Source: Candidatus Limnocylindria bacterium
Lineage (GTDB): Bacteria; Chloroflexota; Limnocylindria; P2-11E
Assembly (NCBI GenBank): GCA_038207785.1
Contig: JBBQZK010000001.1
Location: forward strand, 9,405-73,404
Direction: 5' to 3'
DNA: 64,000 nt
Shown: positions 10,598 through 34,196 of the stretch, in pieces
Position numbering within the stretch: position 1 is the stretch's first letter
Layout: every line of letters begins with the position of its first letter
Program-made: the position numbers and the translations under genes
Notes under the pieces: model-generated
The model's input: only the letters and a program-made list of their open reading frames with translations
What the model was told of the DNA's origin: nothing
The model's database searches: none

Positions 10598-12061
10598 CTA
10601 CGGATACGGATTGACCGAAAGGGTGTTGAAGTTGCGGAGGAACGCCGGGATCGGCGCATCCGTGAAGGCCGGGGCGACCGCGCTGGCGTCCGGCCCGCCG
10701 ATGAGCTTGCCGTATGGGTTGCTGAGCCCAGCGGCAGCGGTGTTGAGATCGGCGGCCTTCGTGCTCGGCCAGCTGCCGTGGTCGATCCGGCCCAGCAGCA
10801 CCTGGATCGCGGCGATCTGCTCGGCGGCGGTGAACTGGCAGTGACCCGAGCGGTGCACGAGCAGCTGTCGGAGCTGGCTCGAGGTGCCGGCGTCCAGGAA
10901 CGCCTGCGCGTAGCCCTGGTCCTGGTTCGGGTATCCATAGGGGTCGGCCTGGGTGTGCATCGTCATGACGACCGCGCGCCCGATGTTGCCGCTGAAGATC
11001 GGATCGAGGTCCTCGACCTTCGTCACCGTGCCGGGATCCGCGCCGATGCGCGGCGCGCGCGCGAGCGTGCGGAGATCGGCGGCGAGGTTGAGTCCCGCGG
11101 CGGCATACATCGCCCGAACGATGTCGGCCGATGCCGAGCGCGCGAGCTGCGCCCCGTAGTCGACGCCGGTGTTCCAGGAGAAGTTCCCTCCGGTCACCGA
11201 GCCGTCGACGCTGTTCCAGGTGCCGACGCGGATCTCATAGTCGGCCCGGCCGTCGTCGTGATACATCCCATTGAATCGGCTGTTGAGGTACTGGTTGTAC
11301 TGCCGTGTCGCGTAATCGGTCGCGGCCGGCTGGGTCGCTCGCGCGTCGTCGATCCAATCCGGCGTATCGACCATCGCCTCGGCCAGCGCGAGGCGGGCGC
11401 GGCCTGCGGCCGTCTGCTGCGCGGCGTCGACCGTGGCGATGTAGGCGTTGTAGTAGCGGGTCAGCTGTCCGCCGTACTTGCCGATGTTCACCAGCGGCTG
11501 ATCGAATCCGAGGAGCTGCTGCATCACGAAGGCGTGGTCGAGGCGCTCGTTCGCGCGTCCGATGCTGCCGGCGATGTAGGTGCATTCCGCGAGCCCGCCG
11601 GCGAATCGCCCGGGATAGAACTGGAGCAGGTGCGCGGTCACCGCCCCACCGGCGGAGAGACCCCAGGCGATCGTCCGCGCCGGGTGACCGACGAGCCGCT
11701 CGAACGTGTCGAGCACGAGGGCCTGAGATGGATACATCTGCTTCGGCTCGTAGCAGAAGTCGCTGCAGGCGTACGAGCCCCCGGCGATCGCGAAGCCCTG
11801 GCCCAGCAGCCATTGGCGCGTCCACTGGTCGGAGCTGACCTGCGCGAGATTCGGGTCGCCCTGGATCCCGTGGCTGTAGAGGAAGAGCGTGCCGTTGTAG
11901 CTCCCCGGGACCTCGATGCGGTAGGTCGCGCCGTCGCTCATCGTTCCGACGTACACCGTCGGAGTGCTCGTCGCCGATGCCGACGTCCCGGTCAGGCCGA
12001 TCGCGACGACGAGTGCCACGCCGACGAGCCAGGCCGGCCAGCTGCTGCGCCCTGTCATCAT
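10598..12061 (-). CDS. secreted alpha/beta-fold hydrolase (esterase/depolymerase-like), signal peptide
   Basis: It starts MMTGRSSWPAWLVGVALVVAIGLTGTSASA and has a GGAGG RBS. It has a G-x-S-x-G nucleophile elbow, GLSAGG. The ORF-track start at 12691 is an over-extension. Confidence 0.5.
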   Translation of the reverse strand: MMTGRSSWPAWLVGVALVVAIGLTGTSASATSTPTVYVGTMSDGATYRIEVPGSYNGTLFLYSHGIQGDPNLAQVSSDQWTRQWLLGQGFAIAGGSYACSDFCYEPKQMYPSQALVLDTFERLVGHPARTIAWGLSAGGAVTAHLLQFYPGRFAGGLAECTYIAGSIGRANERLDHAFVMQQLLGFDQPLVNIGKYGGQLTRYYNAYIATVDAAQQTAAGRARLALAEAMVDTPDWIDDARATQPAATDYATRQYNQYLNSRFNGMYHDDGRADYEIRVGTWNSVDGSVTGGNFSWNTGVDYGAQLARSASADIVRAMYAAAGLNLAADLRTLARAPRIGADPGTVTKVEDLDPIFSGNIGRAVVMTMHTQADPYGYPNQDQGYAQAFLDAGTSSQLRQLLVHRSGHCQFTAAEQIAAIQVLLGRIDHGSWPSTKAADLNTAAAGLSNPYGKLIGGPDASAVAPAFTDAPIPAFLRNFNTLSVNPYP

Positions 12062-12080
12062 CGGACCTCCCCACGCTCGG

Positions 12081-12094
12081 ATGTCACGTGACAT
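12081..12094. promoter_or_regulatory. operator palindrome ATGTCACGTGACAT upstream of the secreted hydrolase gene
   Basis: It is a perfect 14-bp palindrome 20 nt upstream of the ATG. A TTGACC-N17-CATCAT promoter lies at 12119-12147. Confidence 0.7.
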
Positions 12095-12143
12095 GCAACG
12101 TGCACCCGGCCTTGCGCGATGATGGGCTTCCTGGGCCCTCGGG

Positions 12144-13493
12144 TCAATGACCGGGCCCGGAGGCCGCGGGCGCATCCGATCGTGCCGCGGCGAACAGCGC
12201 CGCGCGATCGACCGGCGTCCCGCGCTTGAACACCATCGCGATGCCGGTGGTCGCGGCGATCGTCCGCGTCGGGTCGCCGACGACCAGAACGAGGTCCGCT
12301 CGCTTCCCCGGCGCAACGACGCCGATATCGCTCGCCCCGAGCGTCTCTGCAGGCACGCTCGTCGCCGCCCGGAGCGCGGCGGCGGGTGAAAGGCCGGACC
12401 GCACGAGAAGCTCGAGCTCGCGATGGAATGAACTGCCCGGCAGGATGTAGGCGAACGGCGCATCGGTCGCGGCATGCAGGCGCACGCCCGCTTCGAACAT
12501 CGCGCCGGTGAACCGCATGACCTTCTCGAGCGCCCGCGCCGCCTGCGAGTAATCGGCCGCCGACCAGCCCTCGACGAACCGGTCACGCGTCTCACGCCAC
12601 CCGGAGCGCGCGACCGCGGCGTACTCGGCCATCGCCGGGTCCGCGTCGAGCGCCTCGATGCCGCGCCGGCCCCGTTCCACCGTGCGATCAAGGGTGATGA
12701 GCGTGGGGTTCACGTAGATCCCCTGCTCGGCCAGCCGCGCCGCGATGCGCTTGGTCCGGTCGGCTCCGAGGTCGACGGCCGCCCAGCCGCGGACGAAGTT
12801 GGCCCAGAACGCGCCGAGCCCGCGGCGGCGGCGATCCTCCGCCGGCCAGATGAGCTCCTCGGGCACGACCTCGGTGTAGAGGGACTGGGCGGTGTGCTCG
12901 AGACCGGCGACGCCGCAGTCGATGGCCTCGCCGGCGCGCACCTGTCCGAGATGGGCGCTCGTGCTCAGGCCGTGCTCGCGGGCTCGCCGGACGAACGTCC
13001 GCATGGCGGCGGCAGGCAACATCATGTACGCCTTACACGCGTCGACCCGCTTCTCGTCCAGCAAGTCGGCCGCGCGCACGGCATCCTCGTCATTCGCGAG
13101 GGCAAGGGAATGATCGGGCCAGAACGGCTCGGCGCCGTCGATCAGCGGACCGCAGCAATAGATGCGCGGGCCGCCGTCGCCACCGGAGCGCTCCGCGGCT
13201 CGCCACGGCAGGATGCGTTCGAAGGAGTTCCCGACGTCCTTGACCGTGGTGATGCCATAGGCGAGCCACAGGGGGAGCGCCTGCGGCTGCACGTGCGTGT
13301 GCATGTCGATGAACCCTGGCAGCACGGTGTGGCCACGCCCCGCGATGGTCCGGGCGCCCGCCGGCACTGCCGTGCGTTCGCGCGGCCCGCAGGCGACGAT
13401 CAGCTCGCGCTCGAGCACGACAGTGGCGTCCTCGATCACCGGGGCGCCGGTCCCATCGAACAGCCGCGCGCCGACGATCGCGATGGGCGCCAC
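12144..13493 (-). CDS. amidohydrolase-superfamily metal-dependent hydrolase
   Basis: It has ...LPGFIDMHTHV... with HxH metal ligands and a C-terminal ...GTDAP.../...GKRADLVLV... region. The GTG start at 13493 follows the M20 stop; the ORF-track start would overlap 104 nt. Confidence 0.7.
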   Translation of the reverse strand: MAPIAIVGARLFDGTGAPVIEDATVVLERELIVACGPRERTAVPAGARTIAGRGHTVLPGFIDMHTHVQPQALPLWLAYGITTVKDVGNSFERILPWRAAERSGGDGGPRIYCCGPLIDGAEPFWPDHSLALANDEDAVRAADLLDEKRVDACKAYMMLPAAAMRTFVRRAREHGLSTSAHLGQVRAGEAIDCGVAGLEHTAQSLYTEVVPEELIWPAEDRRRRGLGAFWANFVRGWAAVDLGADRTKRIAARLAEQGIYVNPTLITLDRTVERGRRGIEALDADPAMAEYAAVARSGWRETRDRFVEGWSAADYSQAARALEKVMRFTGAMFEAGVRLHAATDAPFAYILPGSSFHRELELLVRSGLSPAAALRAATSVPAETLGASDIGVVAPGKRADLVLVVGDPTRTIAATTGIAMVFKRGTPVDRAALFAAARSDAPAASGPGH

Positions 13494-13497: not shown

Positions 13498-14853
13498 TCA
13501 GCCGGCGTCGGCGAACTCGCTGACGAAACGGGCCGTCGCCCGGGCGATCGGCTGAACGAGGTCCAGCCGGAGGTTCTCGTTCGGCGCGTGCAGGCGCGCA
13601 TCGGGATGCGTCATCCCGAGCGCGACGAACGGGACCTTGTGCGGATCGCAGATCGGATGCATCGGCGCCGTGCCGGGGCCGGAGATCAATCGAAGCCCTG
13701 GCGCGCCGTAGACCGCCTCGGTCGCCCGCTCCGCCGCGCGCACGAGCGGGTCATCGATCGGCGTCCAGTACGGCCGCTCCGCGGAATGCAGGGTCAGCTC
13801 GACATCGGCGAAGCCACGGCGCGCGAGGTGCTGCCGCAGCTGCTCGAACACCCTGAGTGGATCCTGGTCGGGCACGAGCCGCAGATCGAGGCGGGCCCTG
13901 GCCACCGCGGGAAGGATGGTCTTCGTTCCCGGCCCCATCCACCCTGCGGCGAGGCCGGTGATGTTGCAGGTGGGACTGAAGATCTGGGCCACCTTCGCGG
14001 CCTGTCCCGTCCGCCCCGCGACGAAGGCGGTCGCGCCATGCAGCGCGGCGAAGGCGCGCTCGTCGAACGGCAGCGTATCCAGATGCGCGAGCTGCCGTGC
14101 GGACGGCGGCAGAGCGTCGTCGAGGAATCCGTCGATGATGACCGAGCCATCCGGCGCGACCAGCGTGGCCAGCGCGGATGCCAGACGCGCCCCGGCGTTC
14201 GGCAGCAGCGAGGCATACATCGAGTGGGCGTCCTGGGCCAGCGTGCGGACCTCTAGCTCGAGATACAACATGCCGCGGACCCCGCAGCTCAAGAGCGGCC
14301 GATCGGCCGCGTCGACCTGACCGCCCTCGTTCAGCGCGCCGTCGGCGACGCCGAGCTCGGGACGCTTCGCGAGGAGGGCGCTCAAGTGCGGGCTGCCGGT
14401 CTCTTCCTCACCCTCGACCAGGAAGCGCACCCGGCAGGGCAGCTCGCCGAACGCCTCGCGGTACGCCTCGAGGACGTGGATGCGGGTCACCAGGTGCCCC
14501 TTGTTGTCGACGACGCCGCGCGCGAACAGCCGGCCATCACGCACCGCGGGGCTGAACGGCGGCGTCACCCATTCGGTCAGCGGATCGGCCGGCTGCACGT
14601 CGTAATGCTGGATCGCCAGCAGCGTCTTCGGTCCGGGTCCGATCTCCCCCACGACGAGCGCCGGGGCGCCGGGCAGCTCGACGGTCATGACCGCGCAGCC
14701 CGCGGCGCGAAGGCGCTCCGCGACCCACCGCGACGCGGTCGCGAGCGGCTGCGCCTGAGCGGTCTCGGACGGGATCGCGCAGAGCTCCCGGAGGTCCTCG
14801 ACGATGCGCGGCTGACGCTCGGACAGCAGGCGGTCGAAGGGACCGAACTCCAC
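13498..14853 (-). CDS. M20-family metallopeptidase (dipeptidase/ArgE/CPG2-like)
   Basis: It has ...HYDVQPAD...GVVDNKGHLV... and ...FLVEGEEETGS... motifs. It is ATGA-coupled to the upstream amidohydrolase. Confidence 0.8.
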   Translation of the reverse strand: MEFGPFDRLLSERQPRIVEDLRELCAIPSETAQAQPLATASRWVAERLRAAGCAVMTVELPGAPALVVGEIGPGPKTLLAIQHYDVQPADPLTEWVTPPFSPAVRDGRLFARGVVDNKGHLVTRIHVLEAYREAFGELPCRVRFLVEGEEETGSPHLSALLAKRPELGVADGALNEGGQVDAADRPLLSCGVRGMLYLELEVRTLAQDAHSMYASLLPNAGARLASALATLVAPDGSVIIDGFLDDALPPSARQLAHLDTLPFDERAFAALHGATAFVAGRTGQAAKVAQIFSPTCNITGLAAGWMGPGTKTILPAVARARLDLRLVPDQDPLRVFEQLRQHLARRGFADVELTLHSAERPYWTPIDDPLVRAAERATEAVYGAPGLRLISGPGTAPMHPICDPHKVPFVALGMTHPDARLHAPNENLRLDLVQPIARATARFVSEFADAG

Positions 14854-16235
14854 TAGCCCGCCTTCGCCGGCGCGCCGCCCGGTACGGCGGGCTGATCGTT
14901 CCTCGCGAGCGCATCCGCCGCCGCGAGCAGATCGGCGCGGTGGTGCAGCCGCCCGCCGAGCATGACCTGCTCGATGTCGTTGAGCGCCCGGATGTCGCGC
15001 GCCACGTCGCCGCGCGCGATGACCAGGTCGGCCCGCGCGCCCGCCCGGATGGTGCCCTCATCGGGAGCGCGGAACGCGGCCGCGGCCTGCCCGGTGGAGG
15101 CGTGGATGGCCTCGACCGGCGAGAGGCCGGCTTCGACCAGGTACTCGATCTCGCGGATGAGGCTCGCGCCGGGCGCGACCAGGCCGTCGACGGTGTCGGT
15201 CCCGGTGAGGATGCGGATCCCGGCTCGGTGCGCGAGACCGGTGAAGGCGGTCATGCCGGCCACCGAATCCTGCAGCTCGGTGATCTCGTCGTCGGTCAGC
15301 GGGTCGATGTACGGCGAGCCGGCGGTCTGCACGATCGCTTGGATCGCGGGGCTCAGGTGATCGATGCGCGGCCCGTCGCTGCGCGTCCGCTCGCCGACGT
15401 TGGACACCACGTTCTGGACCACGATCGTCGGATCGAGGAAGATCCGATCGCGGTGCGCCTGCCAGCTCTCGAGGGTCCGGGTCACCGCGCGCGAGTCCGG
15501 GTCGAACCGCGCCCAGTGCGCGGTGCGCCGCATCACGCGGAGGTCGAGCGGGAACCGGCCGACATAGGCCGGGTCGTCGTGCACCTCGCCGGGATGGGCC
15601 CGGACGTGCTCGAGGATCGTGAGGCCCTGGGAGATCGCCTCGACGCTCGTCATCGAGAGCGGCACGTGGCCGGTCAGCAGGATGTCGTGCTCCCGCGCGA
15701 ATGCGGTGATCTGGCGCATCGCGCCCGAGGAGACCCAGTTGTGGATCTTGAGGAACTCGACCCCGAAGGCGAGGTTGTTCTCGAGCAGCAGCTGGGTGTC
15801 GCGGCCCTCCCGCAGGAACCGCAGCTCGTTCTCCGCGCCGTTCAGGGTGACGCCGCTGATCCGCAGCCGGGGATTGACCTCATCCAGGTCGAGCCAGCGA
15901 CGGACGGCCGCGAGCTTGCCCAATGGCCCGCCCGCGTCCTTCAACCTGGTGACGCCATGGGCCAGCAGCAGCTTGAGCACCCATTTCGAGCGCGCGAGGG
16001 TGCCGTGGCCGATGTGGACGTGCATGTCCGACAGCCCCGGCAGCACGCTGTGCCCGGAGGTGTCGATGGCGGTCGCCGAAGACACTTCCGGAGGCGATCC
16101 CTGACCGACCGCGGCGATGCGTCCGCCGCGCACGTGGATCCAGGATCGCTCGAGCGGCGCGGCGCCGGTCCCGTCGATGAGCAGGCCGCCCGAGAGGATC
16201 AGATCGTTCGCGGTCGGGTCGGCCGTGTCACGCAT
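14853..16235 (-). CDS. amidohydrolase-superfamily protein
   Basis: It has ...VLPGLSDMHVHIGHG... and a C-terminal ...GTDTVDG.../...GARADLVIARGD... region. It is the first gene of the amidohydrolase-M20-amidohydrolase operon. Confidence 0.75.
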   Translation of the reverse strand: MRDTADPTANDLILSGGLLIDGTGAAPLERSWIHVRGGRIAAVGQGSPPEVSSATAIDTSGHSVLPGLSDMHVHIGHGTLARSKWVLKLLLAHGVTRLKDAGGPLGKLAAVRRWLDLDEVNPRLRISGVTLNGAENELRFLREGRDTQLLLENNLAFGVEFLKIHNWVSSGAMRQITAFAREHDILLTGHVPLSMTSVEAISQGLTILEHVRAHPGEVHDDPAYVGRFPLDLRVMRRTAHWARFDPDSRAVTRTLESWQAHRDRIFLDPTIVVQNVVSNVGERTRSDGPRIDHLSPAIQAIVQTAGSPYIDPLTDDEITELQDSVAGMTAFTGLAHRAGIRILTGTDTVDGLVAPGASLIREIEYLVEAGLSPVEAIHASTGQAAAAFRAPDEGTIRAGARADLVIARGDVARDIRALNDIEQVMLGGRLHHRADLLAAADALARNDQPAVPGGAPAKAG

Positions 16236-16253: not shown

Positions 16254-16267
16254 ATGTCACGTAACAT
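16254..16267. promoter_or_regulatory. operator ATGTCACGTAACAT in a divergent intergenic region; a TTGACC-N17-CATCAT cassette at 16280-16308 serves the minus-strand operon
   Basis: It lies 19 nt upstream of the minus-strand ATG at 16235 and 24 nt upstream of the plus-strand ATG at 16291. Confidence 0.7.
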
Positions 16268-16290: not shown

Positions 16291-17559
16291 ATGAGCACGG
16301 TCGGTCAAAGCGGGACGCTGCTGATCACGGGGGCGACCGTCTGGGACGGGACCGGCGACGCGGTGCGCGAGGACGTCGCGATGCGGATCGCGGGCTCGCG
16401 CATCGCGGCGATCGGCCGCACCGCGGACTTCGGCGCGCAGCCCGTGTCAGGTGCCGAGATCGACGGCCATGGCCTCTTCCTGATGCCCGGTCTCATCAAC
16501 ATGCACGAGCACCTGATCTTCCGTGGCACAGTCGGGCCACCGGCCGCGGCCCTCGGGCGCGGCGCCCCCGAGCTGACGATCCACGCCGTGCGGGTCGCGG
16601 CTACGGCGCTCGCGCAGGGCATCACGACGGTCCGCGACATGGGCACGAAGTTCGAGATCGCCCTCCGGCTGCGCGACGCGATCGGCGCCGGGCAGATCCT
16701 CGGTCCGCGCATCCTCGCCTGCAACAGCGCGATCCGGGTCACCGGCGGTCACGGCTATCAGGCGGTCCACGCCGATGGGGTCGCCGAGTTCCAGCGCGCG
16801 GCGCGGACGCAGCTCGCGGCAGGCGCCGATTTCATCAAGGTCATGGCGAGCCACGATCCGACGCCGATGCCCGGGCCCGAGCCCACGCGGCCGGAGTGCA
16901 CGGTCGACGAGCTCCGCGCCGCGTTCGAGGTGGCGCACGACTGGGGTCATCACGCCGGGTGCCACGTCATGGGGAGCACCGCGATCTCCCGCGCGCTGGA
17001 CGCCGGCGCCAATGTCATCGAGCACGGTCACTTCCTGACCGAGGACCAGGCCATCCGGATGGCTCGCGATGGGGTCACCTTCACGCCGACCCTCAGCGCG
17101 TACAACGTGCAGACCATGCATCCGCGTTTCAAGCGCGGCGCGGCATGGAAGGCGGCGCACGACGCGCTGCGCTCCGGGCATGCCTCGGCCATGCGCGCCG
17201 CCGTGAGCGCTGGTGTCGCGATGGTCGTGGGAACGGATTCCGTCGGCTGCTACGCCGAAGAGGTCGACCTCCTCCGCAAGGCCGGGGTCGGGACGTTGGA
17301 ATCGCTTCGCGCGTGCACCTCGAACGCCGCCCGCGCGCTCGGCTTGGACCAGGAGATCGGGACGATCAGCGTCGGTCGAATGGCGGACATCATCGCGCTG
17401 CGCGCCGATCCCCGGACCGACCCATACGCCCTCGAGCAGGTGCAGCTCGTGATCCGCGAGGGCCGGGTGCACCGACCGGCGGATCTGGTGTACGCCGAGT
17501 CCGCGCTTCCCGCCGAGGTATCGCTGACGACCCTGGTGCGCTCGCCTAGCAGCGCCTGA
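16291..17559 (+). CDS. amidohydrolase-superfamily protein
   Basis: It starts MSTVGQSGTLLITGATVWDGTG... and has ...MPGLINMHEHL... and ...GTDS.... The ORF-track start at 16117 is an over-extension. Confidence 0.75.
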   Translation: MSTVGQSGTLLITGATVWDGTGDAVREDVAMRIAGSRIAAIGRTADFGAQPVSGAEIDGHGLFLMPGLINMHEHLIFRGTVGPPAAALGRGAPELTIHAVRVAATALAQGITTVRDMGTKFEIALRLRDAIGAGQILGPRILACNSAIRVTGGHGYQAVHADGVAEFQRAARTQLAAGADFIKVMASHDPTPMPGPEPTRPECTVDELRAAFEVAHDWGHHAGCHVMGSTAISRALDAGANVIEHGHFLTEDQAIRMARDGVTFTPTLSAYNVQTMHPRFKRGAAWKAAHDALRSGHASAMRAAVSAGVAMVVGTDSVGCYAEEVDLLRKAGVGTLESLRACTSNAARALGLDQEIGTISVGRMADIIALRADPRTDPYALEQVQLVIREGRVHRPADLVYAESALPAEVSLTTLVRSPSSA

Positions 17560-26206: not shown

Positions 26207-28165
26207 CTAGCCCGGGCCGAACCCGTCGACCGGCGCGATCCGCCGTTGTCCCCGCGGACTCGTTTCCAGCACTTCGAGGATCGTGCCATCCGGTCCGAGG
26301 CGGTAGTCCTGCTCAGTGAGCTCGCTTACCCGATCGATCGCGACGCGCCAGGCCGTGCCTGCGGCCTCGCCAGCGGGCGGGCGGCTCGCCACAACGCTGA
26401 CACTGCGCGGCTCGCCACGCTCCAGCGTCAGCCCCTGCCGCGAAGCCTCGCCGGAGCTCGCCGCGACGGCCGCGGCGAGCGCGGTGACCGACACCCGTTC
26501 GGTGGCGATGACCTTCCCGGGCAAGGTGATCGTTGACTGGAATCCGTCGATGGCCTGGACCTCGACGATCGTGTCGCCACCCTCGGCGGACCGCACCTCG
26601 ATCGTGTCCTCGCCCAGCGGCGACACCATGCGCTGCGTGCCGCGGACGATGGTCCCGTCCGCCTTCAGATCGAGGCTGGTGGTCCGCACCATTCGCCCGC
26701 CCTGGCCCTGCTCGCTCGCGGTCCGCTCCTCGACGCGCAGCTCGCCCCGAGACGTACGGCTCCGGCGGAAGCTCGTCTCGGCGACCACCGCGCCGGCGAC
26801 CTCATCGCGCAGCCGCCCGGCCCGCAGGGCCGTAGCGTCGTCCGAGGGTGGATCGAGCTCCGTCTCGAACACGGGCGGCCGCTCAACAGCTCGCGCGCGG
26901 TCGGCCAGTCGCGCCTCGAGCGCATCGCGCGCGAAGTCGTAGCCGTTCACGAAGACGTGAGCGATCTCGCGGAGCGCGGCGACGTCGTCGACCGGATTGC
27001 CCGGGAGGAGCAGGAGATCCGCCCGCTTCCCCACCTCGACCGTCCCCCAGTCCGCCGTCTCGTTCACGAACCGCGCGGCTTCGACGGTCCCGCAACGCAG
27101 GGCCTCATAGCTCGAGAGGCCGGCCGCCCGCAGGTTTGCGAGCTCGCGGTGGATCGAGAAGCCCGGGATCACGTAGGGGTTCGGCGTGTCGGTGCCAAGG
27201 AGCAACGGGGCGCCTTCGCTATGCAGCACGCCGACGATGCGCCGGTAGACCTCGCTCAGCCGCGCGAGCGTGTCGTAGTAGTCGTCGTCGAAGGTCTGGC
27301 CGCGGAACCGGAAGTCCTGCGAGGGGTCCCAGGCCGCACGCGTGGCGGGGCTCATGTAGCGCAGGTACGGATCGAGCCTCGCCTGCGCCGGCCGTTGGGT
27401 GGTCTGCTGCCAGACGACACCGGTCGGGCAATTCCAGATCTGCTGCTCGTGCATCAGCACGGCGAGCCGCCGGATCGAATCCCAGTCGAGGTGCTCGATC
27501 GCGAGCTTCGCCAGGGCCAGGCGGTTGGCGCGGTCGCTCGGATCGGGCATCGTTACGCCCGCCTCCAAGTGATCGCGGCGAATGCCCGTGAGGTGCTCAA
27601 AGCAGGTGTGGCCGTTCGCGATCGCCTGCTCGTAGCTGATCGAGTCCGGGCAATGCCCGGTGATCATGACCCCGTGGGTCTTGGCCGCGACGCAGAGCGC
27701 GGCGTGGGACTCCGGGCTCAGCCACGAATACACTTTGATCTGCGGGTACCCGCGCTCCGCCCAGGCGCGCACGAGCGGCTCGGCCTGTTCGGGACGGGCG
27801 ACCATCGCCGAGGTGGACCAGATCGTGCGCCCGCTTTTGCCAGGGCCGTCGACGATCGGACTCGTCGTGATCAAATGGGGACCGGGGAGCAGGCCGTTAC
27901 GGATCTGTCGCTGGAGGGCCAGGTGCATCGGCGCGCCCCACATGTTGCGAACGGTCGTGACGCCGTTGGCGAGGTAGAGCCGGTACTCGTCCAGGTCCCA
28001 CCAGTGCACGTGCATGTCGGCGAGGCCGGGCATCAGGTACCGTCCGCGGCCCTCCACCACACGGGCGCCGGGTGGCACGACGCAGGTCGCCGCCGGACCG
28101 ATCGATCGGATCCGGCCGGCTTCGATGACGACGGTCTGATCGGGGATCACTGCGTCGCGGTCCAT
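26207..28165 (-). CDS. amidohydrolase-superfamily protein with a C-terminal extension of roughly 180 aa
   Basis: It has ...LMPGLADMHVHWWD... and ...GTDTPNP... and ...GKRADLLLLPGNP.... The ATG at 28165 follows the cupin gene stop; the ORF-track start at 28624 overlaps the cupin gene. Confidence 0.6.
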   Translation of the reverse strand: MDRDAVIPDQTVVIEAGRIRSIGPAATCVVPPGARVVEGRGRYLMPGLADMHVHWWDLDEYRLYLANGVTTVRNMWGAPMHLALQRQIRNGLLPGPHLITTSPIVDGPGKSGRTIWSTSAMVARPEQAEPLVRAWAERGYPQIKVYSWLSPESHAALCVAAKTHGVMITGHCPDSISYEQAIANGHTCFEHLTGIRRDHLEAGVTMPDPSDRANRLALAKLAIEHLDWDSIRRLAVLMHEQQIWNCPTGVVWQQTTQRPAQARLDPYLRYMSPATRAAWDPSQDFRFRGQTFDDDYYDTLARLSEVYRRIVGVLHSEGAPLLLGTDTPNPYVIPGFSIHRELANLRAAGLSSYEALRCGTVEAARFVNETADWGTVEVGKRADLLLLPGNPVDDVAALREIAHVFVNGYDFARDALEARLADRARAVERPPVFETELDPPSDDATALRAGRLRDEVAGAVVAETSFRRSRTSRGELRVEERTASEQGQGGRMVRTTSLDLKADGTIVRGTQRMVSPLGEDTIEVRSAEGGDTIVEVQAIDGFQSTITLPGKVIATERVSVTALAAAVAASSGEASRQGLTLERGEPRSVSVVASRPPAGEAAGTAWRVAIDRVSELTEQDYRLGPDGTILEVLETSPRGQRRIAPVDGFGPG

Positions 28166-28257
28166 CGGCACGAGCGTGACCGATGTGATCGCGACCGGAC
28201 CCTCGGGCCGCGCGGGAATGTCCAGGCCCTCGCGGAGGGCCGGCAGTCGAGCGGAGC

Positions 28258-28881
28258 TCACGCTCGGTCCGACCGCCAGGTCTCGCCGGCGTCCCGGATC
28301 GTCGCCGGTCCGCCGGCACGGACCCGGAGGTGGCCGAAGCGCTGGTTGATGCTCGAGCCGAGCGCCTCGATGTCGGCGCCGTACACGTGGATCGAGATGG
28401 CCGGACCTGCCCCGGCGTTGCTGACGCGGTGGATGTTCTCCTCGGGCGGGACGAGTGCCGAGCAGTCGCCGCGAGCCGCCCGCTCGTGTCCCGCCTCGAC
28501 GAGGTAGCGGTCCTCGCCGGACCGCATGAGGCGGTAGCGGATCTGGGACTCCTCCCCCTCGTACACGCCCACGACGCACCAGCAGATGTGGTCGTGGATG
28601 GGCGTGGCCTGGCCGGGATGCCACACGAGGGCGACGACGCTGAACGAGCGATCCGGGGAGACCGCGAGCACGTGTTGGGTGTAGCGGTCAGGGGTGCCGG
28701 CTCGCGCACCCTCGGGCAGCCACGAGCGATCCGCGAGGAGCGGCGGCAAGCGCCGCATCGCGAGATCGGCCATCTCCCGGGGACCTCTGCCGTCGGCCTG
28801 CGCCGCCGACAGCTGGGCCACGAACGATCGCAGCGCGGGCGCGAGCGTCGGCGCTGACGGACCGGACCTCACCGCTTGCAT
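28258..28881 (-). CDS. cupin-fold protein (cysteine dioxygenase type I-like)
   Basis: It has ...ALVWHPGQATPIHDHICWCVVGVYEGEE.... The ATG at 28881 lies inside the operator. The ORF-track GTG is at 28893. Confidence 0.55.
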   Translation of the reverse strand: MQAVRSGPSAPTLAPALRSFVAQLSAAQADGRGPREMADLAMRRLPPLLADRSWLPEGARAGTPDRYTQHVLAVSPDRSFSVVALVWHPGQATPIHDHICWCVVGVYEGEESQIRYRLMRSGEDRYLVEAGHERAARGDCSALVPPEENIHRVSNAGAGPAISIHVYGADIEALGSSINQRFGHLRVRAGGPATIRDAGETWRSDRA

Positions 28882-28893
28882 GTTACGTGACAC
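28880..28893. promoter_or_regulatory. operator variant ATGTTACGTGACAC spanning the stop of the amidohydrolase gene and the start of the cupin gene
   Basis: The amidohydrolase TAA is at 28885..28883 and the cupin ATG at 28881..28879. Confidence 0.5.
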
Positions 28894-30145
28894 GGCTGGT
28901 GCCGCCGCGCGGCCGCTCCTCGAGGGGAGCGGCTGAACGGATGCGGACCCCGGACTGCATCACGAACCGCACGCGCCCGCGGTCGCTGAAGAGCGCCGGC
29001 TCGGACAACGGGTCCCCGGCGACGCCGATGAGGTCCGCCTGCTTACCCGGTTCGAGCGTGCCGACCGTGTCCAGCCCGAGGCAGGCGGCCGCCGTCTTCG
29101 TGGCCGCCATGATGGCCTGCAACGGAGTCATGCCGGCTTCGACCATGAAGCTGATCTCCTCGGCGTTCGCGCCATGCGGGCCGATGCCGGTGTCCGTCCC
29201 CATCGCGATCCGCACGCCCATCCGGAGGGCCAGCTGGAATGCCTCACGATGCCGCCCGATCAGGGCGTCCGCCTTCTTGATCACGTAGCTCGGCATGGCC
29301 GCCGGATCCGCGTCGGCCCGCCGGCGGGTCCACGGCAGCGCCGAAAGCGTCGGCACGAGGAACGTTCCGCGCTCGACCATCATCAGGCAGGCTTCCTCGT
29401 CGAGGAAGGTCCCGTGCTCGATGGACTCGATCCCGGCAAGCACGGCGTTCTTGATCCCCTGCGCCGAGTGAGCGTGAGCCATCACGGTCTTCCCCGCGGC
29501 GTGCGCCTCGTAGACGACGACGGCGATCTCCTCCGGCGAGAATCCCGTGGCGGTCGGCTCGTCGCTCGGCGACATGACCCCACCCGAGGTCAGCACCTTG
29601 ATCTGATCGGCGCCCGCGCGGAGCAGCTCGCGGGTGCCACGCCGAACGGCGTCCACGCCGTCGACCACGGCCATCGGGCGCTCCGCGTCCACGGGAAGGC
29701 GCATGACCACGCCCATCGGCATGAGCTGATCGCCGTGCCCACCGGTCTGAGACAGCGCGCCGACCGAGAGGCGCATCCGCGGCCCCGGGAACAGGCCACG
29801 GTCCACCGCGAGCCTGACTCCACGGGGCGTCCCGCCGCCATCGCGCACGGTCGTGATGCCCGCCTCCAGCGTCGCGCGCGCGTTGAACAGAGCCTGGGCG
29901 GTCACGAGGCTCGACGGCGTGAGCAGCTTCTCCTGCGCGTTGAAGGTCGTGATCCCCAGGTGCACGTGGCTGTCGATGAGTCCGGGGAGGATCGTCAGCT
30001 CGGACGCGTCGATCACCTCCGCGTCTCGCGGGCGCTCGCTGCCGACGCGCTCGATGCGGCCGTCGGCGATGGTGATCCAGGCTGGGCGCACCGGATCGGC
30101 GCCGGTGCCGTCGATGACCCCGCCCGCGTGGATCGCCGTCCTCAC
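28883..30145 (-). CDS. amidohydrolase-superfamily protein
   Basis: It has ...ILPGLIDSHVHLG... and ...GTDTGIGPHG... and ...GKQADLIGV.... Confidence 0.75.
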   Translation of the reverse strand: MRTAIHAGGVIDGTGADPVRPAWITIADGRIERVGSERPRDAEVIDASELTILPGLIDSHVHLGITTFNAQEKLLTPSSLVTAQALFNARATLEAGITTVRDGGGTPRGVRLAVDRGLFPGPRMRLSVGALSQTGGHGDQLMPMGVVMRLPVDAERPMAVVDGVDAVRRGTRELLRAGADQIKVLTSGGVMSPSDEPTATGFSPEEIAVVVYEAHAAGKTVMAHAHSAQGIKNAVLAGIESIEHGTFLDEEACLMMVERGTFLVPTLSALPWTRRRADADPAAMPSYVIKKADALIGRHREAFQLALRMGVRIAMGTDTGIGPHGANAEEISFMVEAGMTPLQAIMAATKTAAACLGLDTVGTLEPGKQADLIGVAGDPLSEPALFSDRGRVRFVMQSGVRIRSAAPLEERPRGGTSRVT

Positions 30146-30149: not shown

Positions 30150-30863
30150 TCAGATCCCCCACTTGGCGCGATCGGCGGCCTCGGAGTCGGTCCAGTGCGC
30201 GACGCGCGCGGTCATCCCCATCGCGTCGATGTAGCTCTCGCCGCCGACCATCCGCGCGTGCCGCTCCTCTTCCAGCGCGGCATGCGCCTCGGTCAGCTCG
30301 ATGACCCGCTCGGCGTCCGCGCGCGGCACGACGACGACGCCGTCGTCGTCGCCCAGGATCAGGTCGCCCGGCTGCACAGGAATGCCGCCGCACTGGATCG
30401 GGATGTTGATCGCCCCCGGCCCGGCGCCAGGCCAGAGCGGCATCGCCACCGACCGGGCGAAGACCGGCCAGCCCTTCGCGCGCAGGATCGTCGCGTCGCG
30501 CACCCCGCCGTCCACCACGATCCCGGCCGCACCGGCCCGCTCCAGGTACCAGGCGATGCGGTCGCCCATGCAGCAGAACTCCTTGATGCCGGCCGCATCC
30601 ACGACGATGACCTCGCCCGGACGGACCACGTCCGACGACTTCAGGACGAAGAGCGCATCGGCGGCCCGGGTCCACACCGTCACCGCAGGCCCGCAGACCT
30701 TCATCCCCGGTGCGATCGGCTTGATCTCGTGATGCACGGCCCCGTGACGACCCATCGCGTCATACGCATGCACCGGCGGGTGCGCCCTGAACCGCTCGAT
30801 GAGCCCTGCGGGCAGCGGCTCGGGCGCCGCGAGGATCTTCCCGTACTGGCTGTGCCGCTCCAT
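30150..30863 (-). CDS. RraA-family protein (RraA/HMG-CHA aldolase/oxaloacetate decarboxylase-like)
   Basis: It has ...GIVVDGGVRD... and ...GWPVFARS.... The ATG at 30863 has a GGAGG RBS. The ORF-track extension is junk. Confidence 0.7.
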   Translation of the reverse strand: MERHSQYGKILAAPEPLPAGLIERFRAHPPVHAYDAMGRHGAVHHEIKPIAPGMKVCGPAVTVWTRAADALFVLKSSDVVRPGEVIVVDAAGIKEFCCMGDRIAWYLERAGAAGIVVDGGVRDATILRAKGWPVFARSVAMPLWPGAGPGAINIPIQCGGIPVQPGDLILGDDDGVVVVPRADAERVIELTEAHAALEEERHARMVGGESYIDAMGMTARVAHWTDSEAADRAKWGI

Positions 30864-30918: not shown

Positions 30919-31944
30919 TCACGACCAGTCCAGCACGACCTTTCCGCACTCACCCGAGCGCACGACGGCGAAGGCCTCCGCGAACTGCGCCGCGCGGAAC
31001 CGGTGCGTGATGACCGCACCGATGTCGAGGCCGCTCTGGAGCATCGAGCCCATCCGATACCAGGTCTCGAACATCTCCCGGCCGTAAATGCCCTTGATCG
31101 TGAGGCCGCGGAAGATGACTTGGTTCCAGTCGATCGCCACCTCTTCGTTGGGGATCCCGAGGAGCGCGATGCGACCGCCGTGGTTCATCGTGGCGAGCAT
31201 CGAACGGAGCGCGGCCGGGCTTCCGGACATCTCGAGTCCGATGTCGAACCCCTCCAGCATCCCGAGCTCTGCCATGACGCCGCTGAAGGTGGTCGCCGCC
31301 GGGTCCACCGCGAGCGTCGCGCCGAGCGTTCGCGCAAGGTCGAGCCGGTACGGATTGCGGTCGCTGACCACGACGTAGCGGGCGCCCACGAACTGGCTCA
31401 CCGCCGCGGCCATCACCCCGATCGGTCCGGCGCCGGTGATGAGCACGTCCTCGCCGGCGAGCTCGAAGGACAGCGCGCTGTGGATCGCGTTGCCGAGCGG
31501 ATCGAGGCATGAGCCGATCTCGTCCGGCATGCCGGCGGGCAGCACATACGCGTTCGTCGCAGGCACCGTCACCTCGTCGGCGAACGCTCCGGGGCGCTGG
31601 ACCCCGATCCCCTCGGTGTTTCGGCACAGGTGGCGGCGGCCGGCCCGGCAGTTCCGGCAATGGCCGCAGGTCACGTGGCCCTCGACAGCGACCCGCTGTC
31701 CGATCTCGAATCCGCGCACGAGATCGCCGATCTCGACGATCGACCCCATGAATTCGTGGCCGACGACCAGCCCGATCGGCACGTTGGCGCGGGACCAGGC
31801 ATCCCAGTTCCAGATGTGCAGATCGGTGCCGCAGATCGAGGTGTAATGGACGCGGATCCGTAGATCGTTGGGGCCGGTCAGGGGAGCCGGCACATCGTCG
31901 AGCCAGAGTCCGGCCTCGGGCCTGCTCTTCACGAGCGCGCGCAT
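30919..31944 (-). CDS. tdh: L-threonine 3-dehydrogenase
   Basis: It is near-collinear with E. coli Tdh (…[14 protein letters not shown]… …[19 protein letters not shown]… …GKVVLDWS). It is ATGA-coupled to kbl. Confidence 0.9.
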
Positions 31945-33134
31945 CAGCTGGCGCCGAGCTCCCGTCCGGCGGTCGCGAACGCCTCGAGCGCGCGGTCGAC
32001 GTGCGCGGACTCGTGGGCGGCCGAGAGCTGTACGCGGATCCGCGCCTCCCCGCGCGGCACGACCGGGAACGAGAATGCGATGACGTAGATCCCGAGCTCG
32101 AGGAGCCGGTCGGCCATCCTCGTCGCGAGGCCCGCGTCGCCAAGCATGACCGGCACGATCGGATGCTCGCCGGGAATGATCCGGAAGCCGCGCTGCGCCA
32201 TCCCCTCGCGGAACCGGACCGTGTTCGCCCAGAGCCGCTCTCGCTCCAGGCTGGATCGCTCGATGAGATCCAGCACCGCGATCGACGTCGCGGCGATCAC
32301 GGGTGCGAGGCTGTTCGAGAACAGGTAGGGCCGGGACCGCTGCCGCATGAGCTCGACGATCTCTTTGCGCCCGGAGATATAGCCGCCGGAGGCGCCACCC
32401 AGCGCCTTGCCGAGCGTGCCCGTGATGACGTCCACCCGGCCGACCACACCACCGGCCTCGTGGGATCCGCGGCCGCTCGCGCCCATGACGCCGACCCCGT
32501 GCGAGTCGTCGACCATGACGAGCGCGTTCGAGCGGTCCGCGAGATCGCAGATGCCGCGGAGATCCGCCACGACGCCGTCCATCGAGAACACCCCGTCGGT
32601 CGCGATGACCGTGAAGCGGGCTCCCGAAGCCGCGGCGAGCTGACGCTCGAGATCGTCCAGATCGTTGTTCGCGTACCGGTAGCGCGTCGCTTTGGACAGA
32701 CGCACGCCGTCGATGATGCTGGCATGGTTGAGGGCATCGCTGATGATCGCGTCACCCTCGCCCACGAGCGTCTCGAAGAGGCCCCCATTCGCGTCGAAGC
32801 ACGAGCCATAGAGGATGGTGTCCTCGGTGCCGAGGAAGCGCGTCAGGCGATCCTCGAGCTCGGTGTGGATCTCCTGCGTGCCGCAGATGAACCGGACCGA
32901 CGAGAGCCCATAGCCCCACCGATCGAGGGCCCGGTGGGCCGCGGCCACGACGTCCGGGTGATTGGAGAGCCCGAGGTAGTTGTTCGCGCAGAAATTGAGG
33001 ACCTCGCCGCCCGGGCGAGCGACGATGACGGCCCCCTGGGCCGAGGCGAGGACCCGTTCGCGCTTGAACAGCCCGGCATCACGGATGCCGTCGAGCTGCC
33101 CGCGGAGGTGGTCGGACAGCGCGGTCGTCCGCAT
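31944..33134 (-). CDS. kbl: 2-amino-3-ketobutyrate CoA ligase (glycine C-acetyltransferase)
   Basis: It is near-collinear with E. coli Kbl (…[15 protein letters not shown]… …SVRFICGTQ… …[12 protein letters not shown]…). The MRTT start at 33134 matches the E. coli N-terminus. An alternative ATG at 33146 lies inside the operator. Confidence 0.9.
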
Positions 33135-33158
33135 GCTACGTAACATGTTACGTCAGTG
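33133..33158. promoter_or_regulatory. two overlapping operator variants, ATGCTACGTAACAT at 33133-33146 and ATGTTACGTCAGTG at 33145-33158, between kbl and the asparaginase gene
   Basis: They overlap the kbl start codon(s) and end just before the asparaginase GTG at 33156. Confidence 0.55.
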
Positions 33159-34196
33159 CCACGCGGCGCAGCCGACCGCAGTGATCACGCGCTGAGCGAG
33201 CTGCTGCTCGAGGTCACCCGGGGCGCGCTGGTCGAGGAGCGACACCGGGGCGCGCTGGCCGTCGTCACGCCGGACGGTCAGCTGGCGCACGCGGCCGGGG
33301 ATCCGGACGCGACCGTGGCGTACCTGCGATCCGCGGCGAAGCCGTTCCAGGCCATCGCGCTCGTGCGGAGCGGCGCCGCTGACCGGTTCGATCTGAACGC
33401 CGCGGATCTCGCCCTGTGCTGCGCGTCGCACAACGGCGAGGAACGGCACATCGCCGGCGTGGCCGCGCTGCTCGAAAAGATCGGCTGCAGCGAACGGGAT
33501 CTCGCCTGCGGCACATACCCACCCCTCCTCGCGGCTGCCGCCGCCGCTCTGGACCGGCGCGGCGAGCGCCCCACCGCCCTGCACAACAACTGCAGCGGCA
33601 AGCACGCCGGCATGCTCGCGCTCGCGCTCCACCTTGGTGCTCCGATCAGGGGCTACCTGCAGTCAGACCATCCCGTGCAGCGGGAGATCCTGGCTGACGT
33701 CTCGCGTTTCACCGGCGTGCCGGTCGAGCGCATCGCCCAGGCTATCGACGGCTGCGGCGCACCCACCTTCGGCACCCCGGTCACCGGGATGGCCCTGGCC
33801 TTCGCGCGTCTCGCGAACCCGGATGTGCTGCGCGGAGCTGATCGCTCGGCTGCGCTGCGGCTCCGGGACGCGATGATCGCAGAGCCCTATCTGGTGGGCG
33901 GTGCGGAAAGCTTCGACACTGCGGCGATGACCAACGGCGTCGGCCGACTGGTGTCGAAGCGGGGCGCGAGCGGAGTGCAATGCGTCGGCGTCGTGGGCCG
34001 GCTGGGCATCGCGGTCAAGATGGAGGCCGGATCGGCGGCGCCCGGCCCGGCTGCCGCCGTGATGTGCGCGGCGCTTCAGCAGCTGCGGGTGCTCGATCAG
34101 CCCGGCGAGCTTGCGCTCGACGCTTTCGCCCGCCCGCCGATCCGTAGCGTCGTCGGAGACATCGTGGGGCAGACTCGCGCTGTGTTCGTCCTCTAG
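33156..34196 (+). CDS. L-asparaginase II family protein (PF06089-type)
   Basis: It has the hallmark ...HNNCSGKHAGMLAL... and an N-terminal ...LLLEVTRGALVEERHRGALAV.... It uses a GTG start. Confidence 0.8.
   Translation: MPRGAADRSDHALSELLLEVTRGALVEERHRGALAVVTPDGQLAHAAGDPDATVAYLRSAAKPFQAIALVRSGAADRFDLNAADLALCCASHNGEERHIAGVAALLEKIGCSERDLACGTYPPLLAAAAAALDRRGERPTALHNNCSGKHAGMLALALHLGAPIRGYLQSDHPVQREILADVSRFTGVPVERIAQAIDGCGAPTFGTPVTGMALAFARLANPDVLRGADRSAALRLRDAMIAEPYLVGGAESFDTAAMTNGVGRLVSKRGASGVQCVGVVGRLGIAVKMEAGSAAPGPAAAVMCAALQQLRVLDQPGELALDAFARPPIRSVVGDIVGQTRAVFVL

Follow-up and report, generated by a model that had tools for sequence, protein, structure and literature searches.

What is a dense run of hydrolase genes with one shared operator for, and do the genes form one system? 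We addressed this question at a locus of a Candidatus Limnocylindria bacterium (GenBank assembly GCA_038207785.1, contig JBBQZK010000001.1, positions 9,405 to 73,404 of the forward strand); the whole 64-kb stretch analysed is called the window here, and positions are counted from its first letter. Limnocylindria are abundant, uncultured Chloroflexota of soil and freshwater with genomes of 2.4–3.2 Mb, and the soil members have a GC content of about 68% (PMC13212565). Our answer is a regulon whose roughly 32 genes are spread over 10 transcription units. A GntR-family protein with an FCD effector domain would repress it, and it would serve to take up peptide-like or N-acyl-amino-acid conjugates and hydrolyse them step by step, a reading that we hold about evenly balanced between right and wrong. 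The conserved architecture of the regulon, in which a single operator serves many operons, is well supported; the role of the GntR protein as binder and repressor, the order of the steps and, above all, the substrate class are the parts that we infer.

Genes in the window were called by third-position GC (GC3) and then confirmed with Pfam and NCBIfam hidden Markov models (HMMs); the raw open reading frame (ORF) lists are dominated by spurious frames because the window is uniformly about 70% GC. A preliminary description of the window had proposed a dense hydrolytic island under a shared operator at 10598–34196, and this is what we find, with 22 tightly packed genes between these positions and seven operator sites in the window. 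The GC content is 0.68–0.73 throughout the cluster and equal to that of the flanks, a tRNA scan and an Rfam scan of the window were both empty, and there is no integrase or transposase gene among the annotated ORFs of the window. Nothing in composition, tRNA content or mobility genes hints at a mobile island, and the locus is a regulon cluster, not one acquired by horizontal transfer. The nearest relatives of the proteins encoded here come from Candidatus Limnocylindria metagenome-assembled genomes (MAGs), and two of these, one 95% identical (GCA_046262615.1, our loci L003 and L010) and one 77% identical (GCA_030155925.1, loci L001 and L018), are used for comparison below. Exact-sequence look-ups of two of the proteins, PTE2 and Kbl, found no entry.

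The element that the genes have in common is the palindrome ATGTnACGTnACAT. It occurs seven times in the window with at most one mismatch, and all seven sites are in intergenic or start-codon regions, where they head transcription units or lie in divergent regions; no further site at this threshold is found elsewhere in the 64 kb. The chance expectation is 0.05 sites at one mismatch or fewer (100 first-order Markov simulations) and 0.44 at two or fewer (dinucleotide shuffles). When 15 sites from the window and related loci are pooled, the extended consensus is gCATGTyACGTrACATGc; the operator is 14–18 bp long, one motif common to about 32 neighbouring genes. Operators 1 (10526–10539) and 2 (12081–12094) both read ATGTCACGTGACAT; the first lies downstream of a TTGACC-N17-CATCAT promoter and heads the operon of the solute-binding protein (SBP), permease and GntR genes, and the second has its own promoter of the same form. 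Operator 3 (16254–16267, ATGTCACGTAACAT) is in the divergent region between amidohydrolase genes AH2 and AH3, operator 4 (21186–21199, ATGTTACGTTACAC) is in that between the NicX-like and creatininase genes, operator 5 (24911–24924, ATGTCACGTGAAAT) lies 10 nt downstream of TTGACC-N17-CATGCT, and operator 6 (28880–28893) reads ATGTTACGTGACAC. Operator 7 (33133–33158) consists of ATGCTACGTAACAT and an overlapping extra half-site, ATGTTACGT, at 33145, and it touches the start codons of both kbl and the asparaginase II gene.

These sites define ten transcription units. Unit 1 is SBP-permease-permease-GntR and probably continues leftward, unit 2 is the secreted hydrolase, unit 3 is AH2-M20-AH1, unit 4 is AH3, unit 5 is NicX-like-PTE1-MhpD-like-NHL, unit 6 is creatininase-PTE2-3HCDH-YeiH, unit 7 is the DJ-1 pair, unit 8 is thiol dioxygenase-AH4, unit 9 is Kbl-Tdh-RraA-like-AH5, and unit 10 is asparaginase II. 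Upstream of four of the operator sites is a sigma-70-like promoter, TTGACC-N17-CAT(C/G)(A/C)T, with the operator 10–25 nt past the −10 box, and this placement points to repression.

A second palindrome, GGTCAATGACC, overlies the −35 boxes at 10581–10591 (transporter operon) and 12142–12152 (secreted hydrolase). It is present in an identical Logan contig and missing from the 95% relative, and we rejected it as a second operator since it is not conserved there. The longest ORFs tend to begin within the operator (MSRD..., VSRN..., MLRS...), as at 12094, 28893 and 33146 in the window, L001:9092 and L040:11508, and in L001 the deposited gene call likewise starts inside the operator. Because the palindrome begins and ends with ATG/CAT, it leads systematically to wrong start-codon annotations in these genomes. 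Only 10 bp separate the start of Kbl (33146, with an alternative ATG at 33134) from that of asparaginase II (33156), and both starts touch the operator, which leaves no room between 33133 and 33158 for separate 5′ untranslated regions or ribosome-binding sites; either the transcripts at this junction are leaderless or the starts are mis-called.

Which protein would read the operator? The only transcription factor in the cluster is the presumed repressor (6061–6840, minus strand), whose gene lies within the operator-headed transporter operon and which carries an N-terminal GntR winged helix (Pfam, 53 bits) and a C-terminal FCD domain (75 bits), both above cutoff. Its orthologue in locus L020 is 67% identical, with operators before AH2-M20 and before the SBP gene; that in L018 is 62% identical, with an operator before the secreted hydrolase; and that in L021, an Actinomycetota MAG, is 52% identical, with an operator between the regulator and an operon of Kbl-like, Aminotran_5 and amidohydrolase genes. 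Regulator and operator are thus co-inherited across L020, L018 and L021. Judged from these sequences, the GntR/FCD protein most likely binds the palindrome as a dimer and as its cognate regulator, and it would act as a repressor that is relieved by a small carboxylate effector. Its best NCBIfam matches, PhnR, CsiR, LldR and NanR, are all far below cutoff, and residues His147, His197 and His219 of its FCD domain are invariant. When metagenomes were scanned with the GntR profile, most of the relatives found were at most 46% identical and had no hydrolase island.

Some more distant GntR/FCD relatives, about 32% identical, are accompanied by the same palindrome at the metagenome loci L037:3581, L039:2024, L040:11507 and L042:2715, in the form ATGTCACGTGA[AC]AT or, in L037, ATGTCACCTGACAT. 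In two loci examined, the palindrome is between the gene for a conserved protein of about 275 aa (family unassigned) and a DUF1007 + NicO metal-transporter pair. The specificity for this operator seems, from these comparisons, to be older than the hydrolase regulon, and in the DUF1007-NicO clade the palindrome may control metal uptake.

Are the genes kept together with the operator in other genomes? In the 95% relative (L003/L010) synteny is perfect across the 14 kb available, at 87–96% identity. In the 77% relative, the contig made up of L001 and L018 carries orthologues at 45–77% identity in rearranged order, with operators kept at the heads of the rearranged units; these are both DJ-1, both PTE, RraA-like, YeiH, 3HCDH, MhpD-like, creatininase, NicX-like, NHL, AH3, AH5, SBP, permease and GntR genes, together with those for the secreted hydrolase, CoA ligase, thioesterase, 375-aa protein and Glyoxalase_3 protein. 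L020 adds the thiol dioxygenase-AH4 pair, AH2-M20 and one DJ-1. In all, about 28 of the 32 genes recur near the operator in at least one other lineage, and the operator precedes orthologous genes in L001, L018, L020 and L003, whose proteins are 60–95% identical to those of the window. A 274-aa gene that follows an operator in L018 was rejected as a new gene; it is a split orthologue of the secreted hydrolase. The gene-neighbourhood comparison that the preliminary description had called for thus came out in its favour, with genes and operator co-conserved in related genomes.

This conservation bears on the simplest alternative, which is that there is no functional unit and that coincidence in a gene-dense genome has placed the hydrolase genes side by side. 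In favour of it, the families are of mixed kinds and each is common in soil bacteria, but the common operator heads every transcription unit, and genes and operator are kept in other lineages despite rearrangement. We give this alternative almost no credence, and it is disfavoured by direct tests.

How far does the unit extend? Its right edge is at 34196, as had been described, and is followed by leuD, leuC, leuA, ilvC and ilvB, but the left edge given for the island (10598) was too narrow. The genes from 433 to 10480 have operon-like spacing with no predicted terminator, and the left-hand block of L020 is collinear with the window from 10480 down to 433 at 67–93% identity, in the order SBP-permease-permease-GntR-MDR reductase-acyl-CoA ligase-4HBT thioesterase-375-aa protein-nitroreductase-like-Glyoxalase_3. 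The co-regulated and co-conserved unit therefore spans about 433–34196 and holds about 32 genes, most of them for metal-dependent hydrolases of amide and ester bonds, together with those for a peptide-type importer.

All genes of this left-hand operon are on the minus strand. It begins with a family-5 solute-binding lipoprotein (8774–10480; SBP_bac_5, E=2e-82) with a Tat-type signal (RRELI...LAAC), followed by two Dpp/Opp-type ABC permeases (7766–8719 and 6868–7800; Pfam BPD_transp_1, OppC_N, BPD_transp_1_N). The nearest solved relatives of the binding protein are the peptide binders AppA and DppA (1e-53 to 1e-35), HbpA, a binder of glutathione and heme, also ranks near the top, and NikA follows at about 1e-22. 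There is no ABC_tran gene in or beside the permease operon here or in L001 and L020, and the lone ABC ATPase of the window (48559–49479) is paired with an ABC-2 permease. The Dpp-like importer that had been proposed thus stands as to binding protein and permeases, but not as to ATPases. Beyond the regulator gene are an MDR-family (quinone oxidoreductase/enoyl reductase-like) dehydrogenase (4956–5999; ADH_N + ADH_zinc_N, with PIG3 and crotonyl-CoA reductase-like matches below cutoff), an AMP-forming acyl-CoA ligase (3390–4952; Pfam AMP-binding E=6e-89; NF004837 428 bits against a cutoff of 476) and a hotdog-fold (4HBT) thioesterase (2968–3390; PF03061, TIGR00369). Next come a 375-aa degenerate paralogue of the NicX/M29 fold (1844–2971; hhalign to the NicX-like protein, probability 98.4%, E=7e-15), in which the H-x-D metal motif is lost, and a nitroreductase/BluB-like protein (1236–1916; NCBIfam BluB 52 bits, below cutoff; its L020 orthologue matches PF00881). 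The last gene of the operon encodes a Glyoxalase_3-domain protein (433–1266; PF13468, E=5e-53) that is syntenic in L020 and L018. Between the GntR and MDR reductase genes, at 6011–6036, operator half-sites occur in everted orientation with a 10-bp spacer (TTGACAT-N10-ATGTCAA), which may be a variant site or an internal promoter.

The importer and the regulator's relatives also bear on whether the regulon responds to metal, with the FCD domain sensing a transition metal or metal-ligand complex and a NikA-like importer coupled to metalloenzymes. The occurrence of the same palindrome before DUF1007 and NicO genes in the ~32%-identical relatives would fit this, as would the three invariant FCD histidines and the inclusion of the nickel binder NikA in SBP family 5. 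Most of the encoded enzyme families are metal-dependent, which also counts for it, but FCD domains in general have metal-binding histidines as part of their structure. Moreover, the binding protein is much nearer to the peptide binders than to NikA, an operator in common at 32% identity may reflect merely a conserved DNA-binding domain, and Tdh-Kbl, asparaginase and CoA ligase fit catabolism and not metal homeostasis. We consider a metal-responsive regulon very unlikely.

Next, what would the enzymes between 10598 and 34196 act on? The family assignments that had been made for them largely survive a check with HMMs, which place the M20, two PTE, creatininase-fold, 3HCDH, two DJ-1, NHL, RraA-like and asparaginase II genes as described; the cupin is refined to a CDO-type thiol dioxygenase, and both members of kbl-tdh pass NCBIfam equivalog cutoffs. 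Of the six amidohydrolases that had been counted, five carry PF01979, and the sixth, at 10598, is a secreted alpha/beta serine hydrolase. The claimed M29 peptidase has the PF26233/NicX fold instead, and the MhpD-like hydratase keeps a weak NCBIfam match (45 bits against a cutoff of 350) but no Pfam match. What the earlier inventory had missed is the thiol dioxygenase as such, the acyl-CoA ligase/thioesterase/reductase arm co-oriented with the regulator, and the NicX-fold and NHL pair.

The secreted hydrolase (10598–12061, minus strand) has a signal peptide, a lid domain, a weak DUF6351 match and an invariant Ser-Asp-His triad (GHSLGG, Asp373, His407-Cys408). In its AF2 model (pLDDT 89), the nearest Foldseek matches are tannase, feruloyl esterase and MHETase, and the predicted likeness is weak (TM 0.35–0.38). 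The five amidohydrolases are AH1 (12144–13493, minus strand, refined start), AH2 (14853–16235, minus), AH3 (16291–17559, plus), AH4 (26207–28261, minus) and AH5 (28883–30145, minus). AH4 has 684 aa, of which a C-terminal extension of about 240 aa has no family match. Against NF051886, the Caulobacter-type Xaa-Pro dipeptidase model with a cutoff of 500, AH5 scores 319 bits, AH3 210, AH1 110, AH2 92 and AH4 86. AH3 is of the cog1228 prolidase/carboxypeptidase-like type and AH5 of the carboxypeptidase/N-acyl-amino-acid hydrolase type, and the solved relatives of both are the Cc2672 Arg carboxypeptidase, Sgx9260 prolidases and ochratoxin amidohydrolases (E 1e-57 to 1e-69; for AH5, PDB 8ihq, 3mtw, 3mkv and 4c5y). 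By homology, AH5 and AH3 would cleave the C-terminal amino acid off dipeptides or N-acyl amino acids. An M20 dipeptidase-like metallopeptidase (13498–14853, minus; Pfam M20 + M20_dimer; PRK06446/PRK08201 matches below cutoff) lies between AH1 and AH2.

Further hydrolases are on both strands. PTE-family hydrolase 1 (19206–20120, minus; Pfam PTE E=7e-67) and hydrolase 2 (21971–22897, plus) meet the family level (Pfam PTE 226 and 232 bits) and have the Rsp3690 esterase and E. coli PHP as their nearest relatives, not organophosphate hydrolases or PLL lactonases, but they score below the equivalog cutoffs (PHP 193–204 against 486, OPH 103–108 against 500, phospho-furanose lactonase 82–94 against 630). 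The creatininase-fold hydrolase (21205–21948, plus; E=2e-60, Pfam 205 bits) is likewise below equivalog level (TIGR04448 114 against 235, MftE 130 against 172). The tandem DJ-1/PfpI proteins (24954–25571 and 25558–26187, plus) are closest to isonitrile hydratase (E=1e-22). Identity between paralogues is 24–33% among the five amidohydrolases, 45% for the two PTEs and 58% for the two DJ-1s. Each PTE and each DJ-1 has its own orthologue in L001, and these duplications therefore predate the split from L001; the expansion inside the island that had been suggested does not hold for the amidohydrolases and is at best ancient for the two pairs.

Other genes of the cluster would deal with amino acids, keto-acids and thiols. 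L-threonine 3-dehydrogenase (Tdh; 30919–31944, minus; NF003808 532 bits against a cutoff of 380) and glycine C-acetyltransferase (Kbl; 31944–33146, minus; NF005394 627 against 460) are the sole enzymes in the cluster above curated NCBIfam equivalog cutoffs, and they adjoin in one operon in which stop and start codons share base 31944. L-asparaginase II of the Rhizobium type (33156–34196, plus; PF06089, E=1e-106) is divergent from them. The link to Thr/Gly and Asn/Asp metabolism that had been drawn is thus reasonable, with Kbl and Tdh at equivalog level and under operator control along with asparaginase II. An RraA-like protein of the class II aldolase/oxaloacetate decarboxylase family (30150–30863, minus) and a 3-hydroxyacyl-CoA/3-hydroxyacid dehydrogenase-family protein (3HCDH; 22897–23817, plus) are HMM family matches, and the distant MhpD/2-oxopent-4-enoate hydratase-like protein is at 18499–19209 (minus). 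A YeiH-family membrane protein of the putative sulfate/sulfite exporter family (23814–24845, plus; PF03601; TIGR00698 135 bits, below cutoff) follows 3HCDH. Before AH4 is a Gln-type thiol dioxygenase, a 3-mercaptopropionate dioxygenase-like cupin (28258–28881, minus; Pfam CDO_I 32 against 23; E=6e-27 to 4wvz), in which HDH, IHRV, HVYG and RYTQ (HxH, H, Y, Q) are kept; in this enzyme type these supply the 3-His iron site, the Tyr and the Gln that replaces the Arg of CDO.

The NicX-like gene (20124–21164, minus) raises the question of whether the pathway opens a pyridine or other N-heterocyclic ring around a NicX-type 2,5-dihydroxypyridine dioxygenase. The protein is a NicX/M29-fold metalloprotein of a rare subfamily, with 75 homologues at E ≤ 1e-5 among 8000 candidates scored; these carry PF26233 and are named 2,5-dihydroxypyridine 5,6-dioxygenase by JGI, and the AF2 model (pLDDT 96) matches NicX 7cn3 with a Foldseek TM of 0.81 and M29 with 0.58–0.69. 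The RraA-like aldolase and the MhpD-like hydratase also recall meta-cleavage pathways. In NicX, Fe(II) is bound by His265, Ser302, His318 and Asp320, and the substrate is positioned by His105, Glu177, His189 and Arg293 (PMC7910607). Two of the four iron ligands are kept here (His318 as His321, Asp320 as Asp323) but His265 aligns with Glu275 and Ser302 with Ala305, and all four positioning residues are replaced (by Phe111, His189, Ser200 and His297). The subfamily has invariant residues of its own (E275, E294, D295, H311, H321, D323), equivalents of NicC, NicD and NicF were not found, and uptake is via a peptide-type transporter. We therefore rejected the dihydroxypyridine dioxygenase reading on the active-site residues, and ring cleavage of this kind, which these direct tests disfavour, is most improbable.

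Nor does the protein reach family level as an M29 peptidase. The PF02073 score is 17.7 bits against a gathering threshold of 27 (E=0.0017), below the Pfam cutoff; the NicX-like profile reaches PepS only at E=5.5e-4, with H-x-D as the sole motif in common with M29. The Glu of the M29 PTEEV motif is a metal ligand, and in a partial PepS alignment it aligns to Gly/Gln. A scan of species-representative genomes with the NicX-like profile found eight loci, with mere fragments of the gene association beyond Limnocylindria, and a tblastn search of plasmids found only true NicX genes at about 35% identity.

The gene that ends the NicX-like unit encodes an NHL-repeat beta-propeller (17546–18496, minus; Pfam NHL), which among enzymes is most similar to the PAL lyase domain of PAM (3fvz; E=5e-28 over 150 residues). 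Non-enzymatic NHL-repeat proteins scored above PAL, and a reading as Vgb lyase (about 1e-6) was downgraded since PAL is a far better match. NicX-like homologues elsewhere recur beside genes for SBP5 transporters, RraA-like, NHL, amidase, gamma-glutamyltranspeptidase, amidohydrolase and GntR proteins (loci L004, L005, L007, L012, L014, L016 and L017); no such neighbourhood was found for archaeal NicX-like genes. In L005/L006 (JGI/Logan contigs), genes for two gamma-glutamyltranspeptidases and for RraA-like, SBP5, amidase and NHL proteins come after a 59%-identical NicX-like gene, which hints at gamma-glutamyl or thiol peptide substrates for the family. In L007 (ENA contig_7), a 46%-identical NicX-like gene lies among several NHL paralogues, each paired with a DUF1800 gene. 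By analogy with PHM and PAL, the NicX-fold protein and the PAL-like NHL protein might be a new bond-cleaving pair within an undescribed pathway for a specific class of ester- and amide-linked natural products (such as depsipeptides or N-acyl, possibly thiol-bearing, amino-acid conjugates). The pair would carry out an oxidative or hydrolytic step and then a lyase step on a C–N or C–O bond, only loosely like PHM/PAL and from unrelated or repurposed folds. We put this forward as a speculative and rather unlikely idea.

Could the whole regulon serve a single class of natural product with both ester and amide bonds, for example cyclic (lipo)depsipeptides or N-acylated conjugates of amino acids? In such a pathway, the secreted esterase would open or trim the compound outside, and the linear product would enter by App-like import. 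The amidohydrolases would then take off residues, activation with CoA would deal with the acyl tail, and Tdh-Kbl would consume Thr, which is the usual lactone anchor. Much of the inventory can be fitted to this scheme: the tannase/feruloyl-esterase/MHETase-like lidded fold of the secreted hydrolase, the AppA-like binding protein, two PTE-fold esterases or lactonases, the likeness of AH5 to N-acyl-amino-acid hydrolases such as ochratoxinases, the acyl-CoA ligase, thioesterase and reductase in the regulator's operon with 3HCDH elsewhere in the regulon, the presence of Tdh, Kbl and asparaginase, and the faint Vgb-lyase similarity of the NHL protein. But every link is at family level, the esterase TM is merely 0.35–0.38, the NHL protein is far nearer to PAL than to Vgb lyase, the cluster has no beta-oxidation genes (thiolase, enoyl-CoA hydratase, acyl-CoA dehydrogenase), and no literature precedent was found. 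We regard a dedicated pathway of this kind as unlikely.

The thiol dioxygenase and YeiH suggest another use, the scavenging of sulfur from thiol peptides or amides (glutathione-like compounds, Cys-Gly, mercapto-acyl amino acids), where hydrolysis would free a thiol acid or amine, the dioxygenase would make a sulfinate and YeiH would export sulfite or sulfate. The Gln-type dioxygenase shares an operon with AH4, a pairing that is kept in L020; YeiH is translationally coupled to 3HCDH, which is kept in L001; and both the gamma-glutamyltranspeptidase (GGT) neighbours of the 59%-identical NicX-like homologue, along with its RraA-like and SBP5 genes, and the presence of HbpA among the top relatives of the binding protein are in keeping with it. 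However, just 2 of about 32 genes are sulfur-related, GGT, desulfinase and sulfite oxidase were not found in the window, and the exporter role of YeiH is a family annotation for a protein that is below the NCBIfam cutoff. Sulfur scavenging is thus distinctly unlikely.

We return to the main reading, in which peptide-like or N-acyl-amino-acid conjugates are taken up and broken down stepwise, and under which the regulon might work as follows. The GntR/FCD dimer would repress from the palindrome until a carboxylate effector relieves it. First, an ester- or amide-linked substrate would be trimmed outside the cell by the secreted serine hydrolase with its lid; second, the Tat-exported SBP and two permeases would import peptide-sized products with ATPases borrowed from elsewhere. 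Third, in the cytoplasm, the five amidohydrolases and the M20, creatininase-fold, two PTE-fold and two DJ-1 enzymes would cut amide, ester/lactone and lactam bonds, with the NicX-fold and NHL pair acting on the same substrates. Fourth, Thr would be converted to Gly and acetyl-CoA via Tdh-Kbl and Asn to Asp via asparaginase II, while the RraA-like, MhpD-like and 3-hydroxyacid-dehydrogenase enzymes would handle keto-acids. Fifth, the thiol dioxygenase would oxidise thiol-bearing fragments and the CoA ligase would activate acyl moieties. The presence of the PTE-fold enzymes, the NicX-fold and NHL pair, 3HCDH, the thiol dioxygenase, YeiH and the arm with the CoA ligase indicates a target beyond ordinary peptides, which may be one elaborate molecule or a family of conjugates.

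Several points weigh against this scheme. ATPase genes for the importer were not found within the 64-kb window, a canonical promoter was not found for five of the transcription units, and the start codons of kbl and the asparaginase gene abut the operator, for which we offer no explanation. What connects the regulator to the operator is their co-occurrence, from which binding is presumed. Apart from Kbl and Tdh, all enzymes are below equivalog cutoffs, so the substrate assignments, drawn from sequence families, are at family level only. Finally, the two PTE, NHL, MhpD-like, 3HCDH, RraA-like, thiol dioxygenase, YeiH and CoA ligase proteins are superfluous for ordinary peptide catabolism, and the true target may therefore be a more specific one, or the regulon may serve several substrates that are unrelated.

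Is such a system already known? A GntR-controlled catabolic cluster is of a well-known kind. The GntR/FadR-type regulons (LldR, DgoR, NanR, CsiR) likewise have a winged-helix GntR protein with FCD, the regulator gene inside the cluster and a palindromic operator with GT-n-AC cores that overlaps promoters or follows directly after them, but here the operator sequence is different and there are unusually many units in one cluster (at least 10, with about 32 genes). In cog1228 (Cc2672/Sgx9355e Arg/Lys carboxypeptidases, Sgx9260 prolidases, ADH3, ochratoxinase), AH5 and AH3 align end to end, whereas AH1, AH2 and AH4 are remotely related (86–110 bits) and AH4 has its extra C-terminal region. The NicX-like protein has the fold and H-x-D motif of NicX (7cn3) and M29 (AmpS, PepS, AmpT), but it lacks two of four iron ligands and the positioning residues of the former, has the PTEEV Glu of the latter replaced and is below the M29 cutoff.

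Three other known systems are partly similar. Hydantoin/N-carbamoyl-amino-acid (hyu) clusters likewise combine amidohydrolase-superfamily ring-openers, an M20 amidohydrolase, a transporter and local regulation, but hydantoinase, carbamoylase and racemase equivalogs were not found here, there are many more enzyme types, and uptake is of the peptide ABC type. For Mdo-based 3-mercaptopropionate catabolism, the cupin is about as near to the P. aeruginosa and A. vinelandii enzymes as these are to other bacterial homologues, and a CoA ligase is present in the regulon; in contrast, a desulfinase and a CoA-transferase are absent, and the partner of the dioxygenase is an amidohydrolase. To the PAL domain of PAM (3fvz), the NHL propeller can be aligned, and it has a persistent metal-enzyme neighbour (NicX-fold), loosely as PAL may be said to have PHM, but this partner is not a copper monooxygenase and NHL repeats also occur in non-enzymatic proteins. 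A literature search on the enzyme combination and on Limnocylindria metabolism found no account of the cluster; the combination, the operator, its breadth and the NicX-fold subfamily were not found described. No described pathway was found to match, in agreement with the earlier statement that no textbook pathway has this combination.

That about 1% of a small genome is given to one tightly regulated hydrolase regulon suggests an ecologically important substrate, probably a form of dissolved organic nitrogen. One repressor and one motif at about 10 promoters also give an experimental handle to de-orphan more than 20 enzymes annotated at family level, among them the database-misnamed NicX-fold subfamily, five cog1228 amidohydrolases akin to ochratoxin degraders and two PTE-fold enzymes.

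Two further features of the window lie to the right of the regulon. The segments 51097–51561 and 53901–54365 are 73–74% identical in DNA and lie in neighbouring ORFs, which suggests local gene duplication; the ORF at 51092–53362 is a GHL10-type glycosyl-hydrolase-like gene with a CarboxypepD_reg domain. On the minus strand, a low-complexity protein rich in Gly, Gln and Ser (GGQGGQSGSQGG...) is encoded at 61616–62150 by a repeat with periods of 9, 21 and 30 nt.

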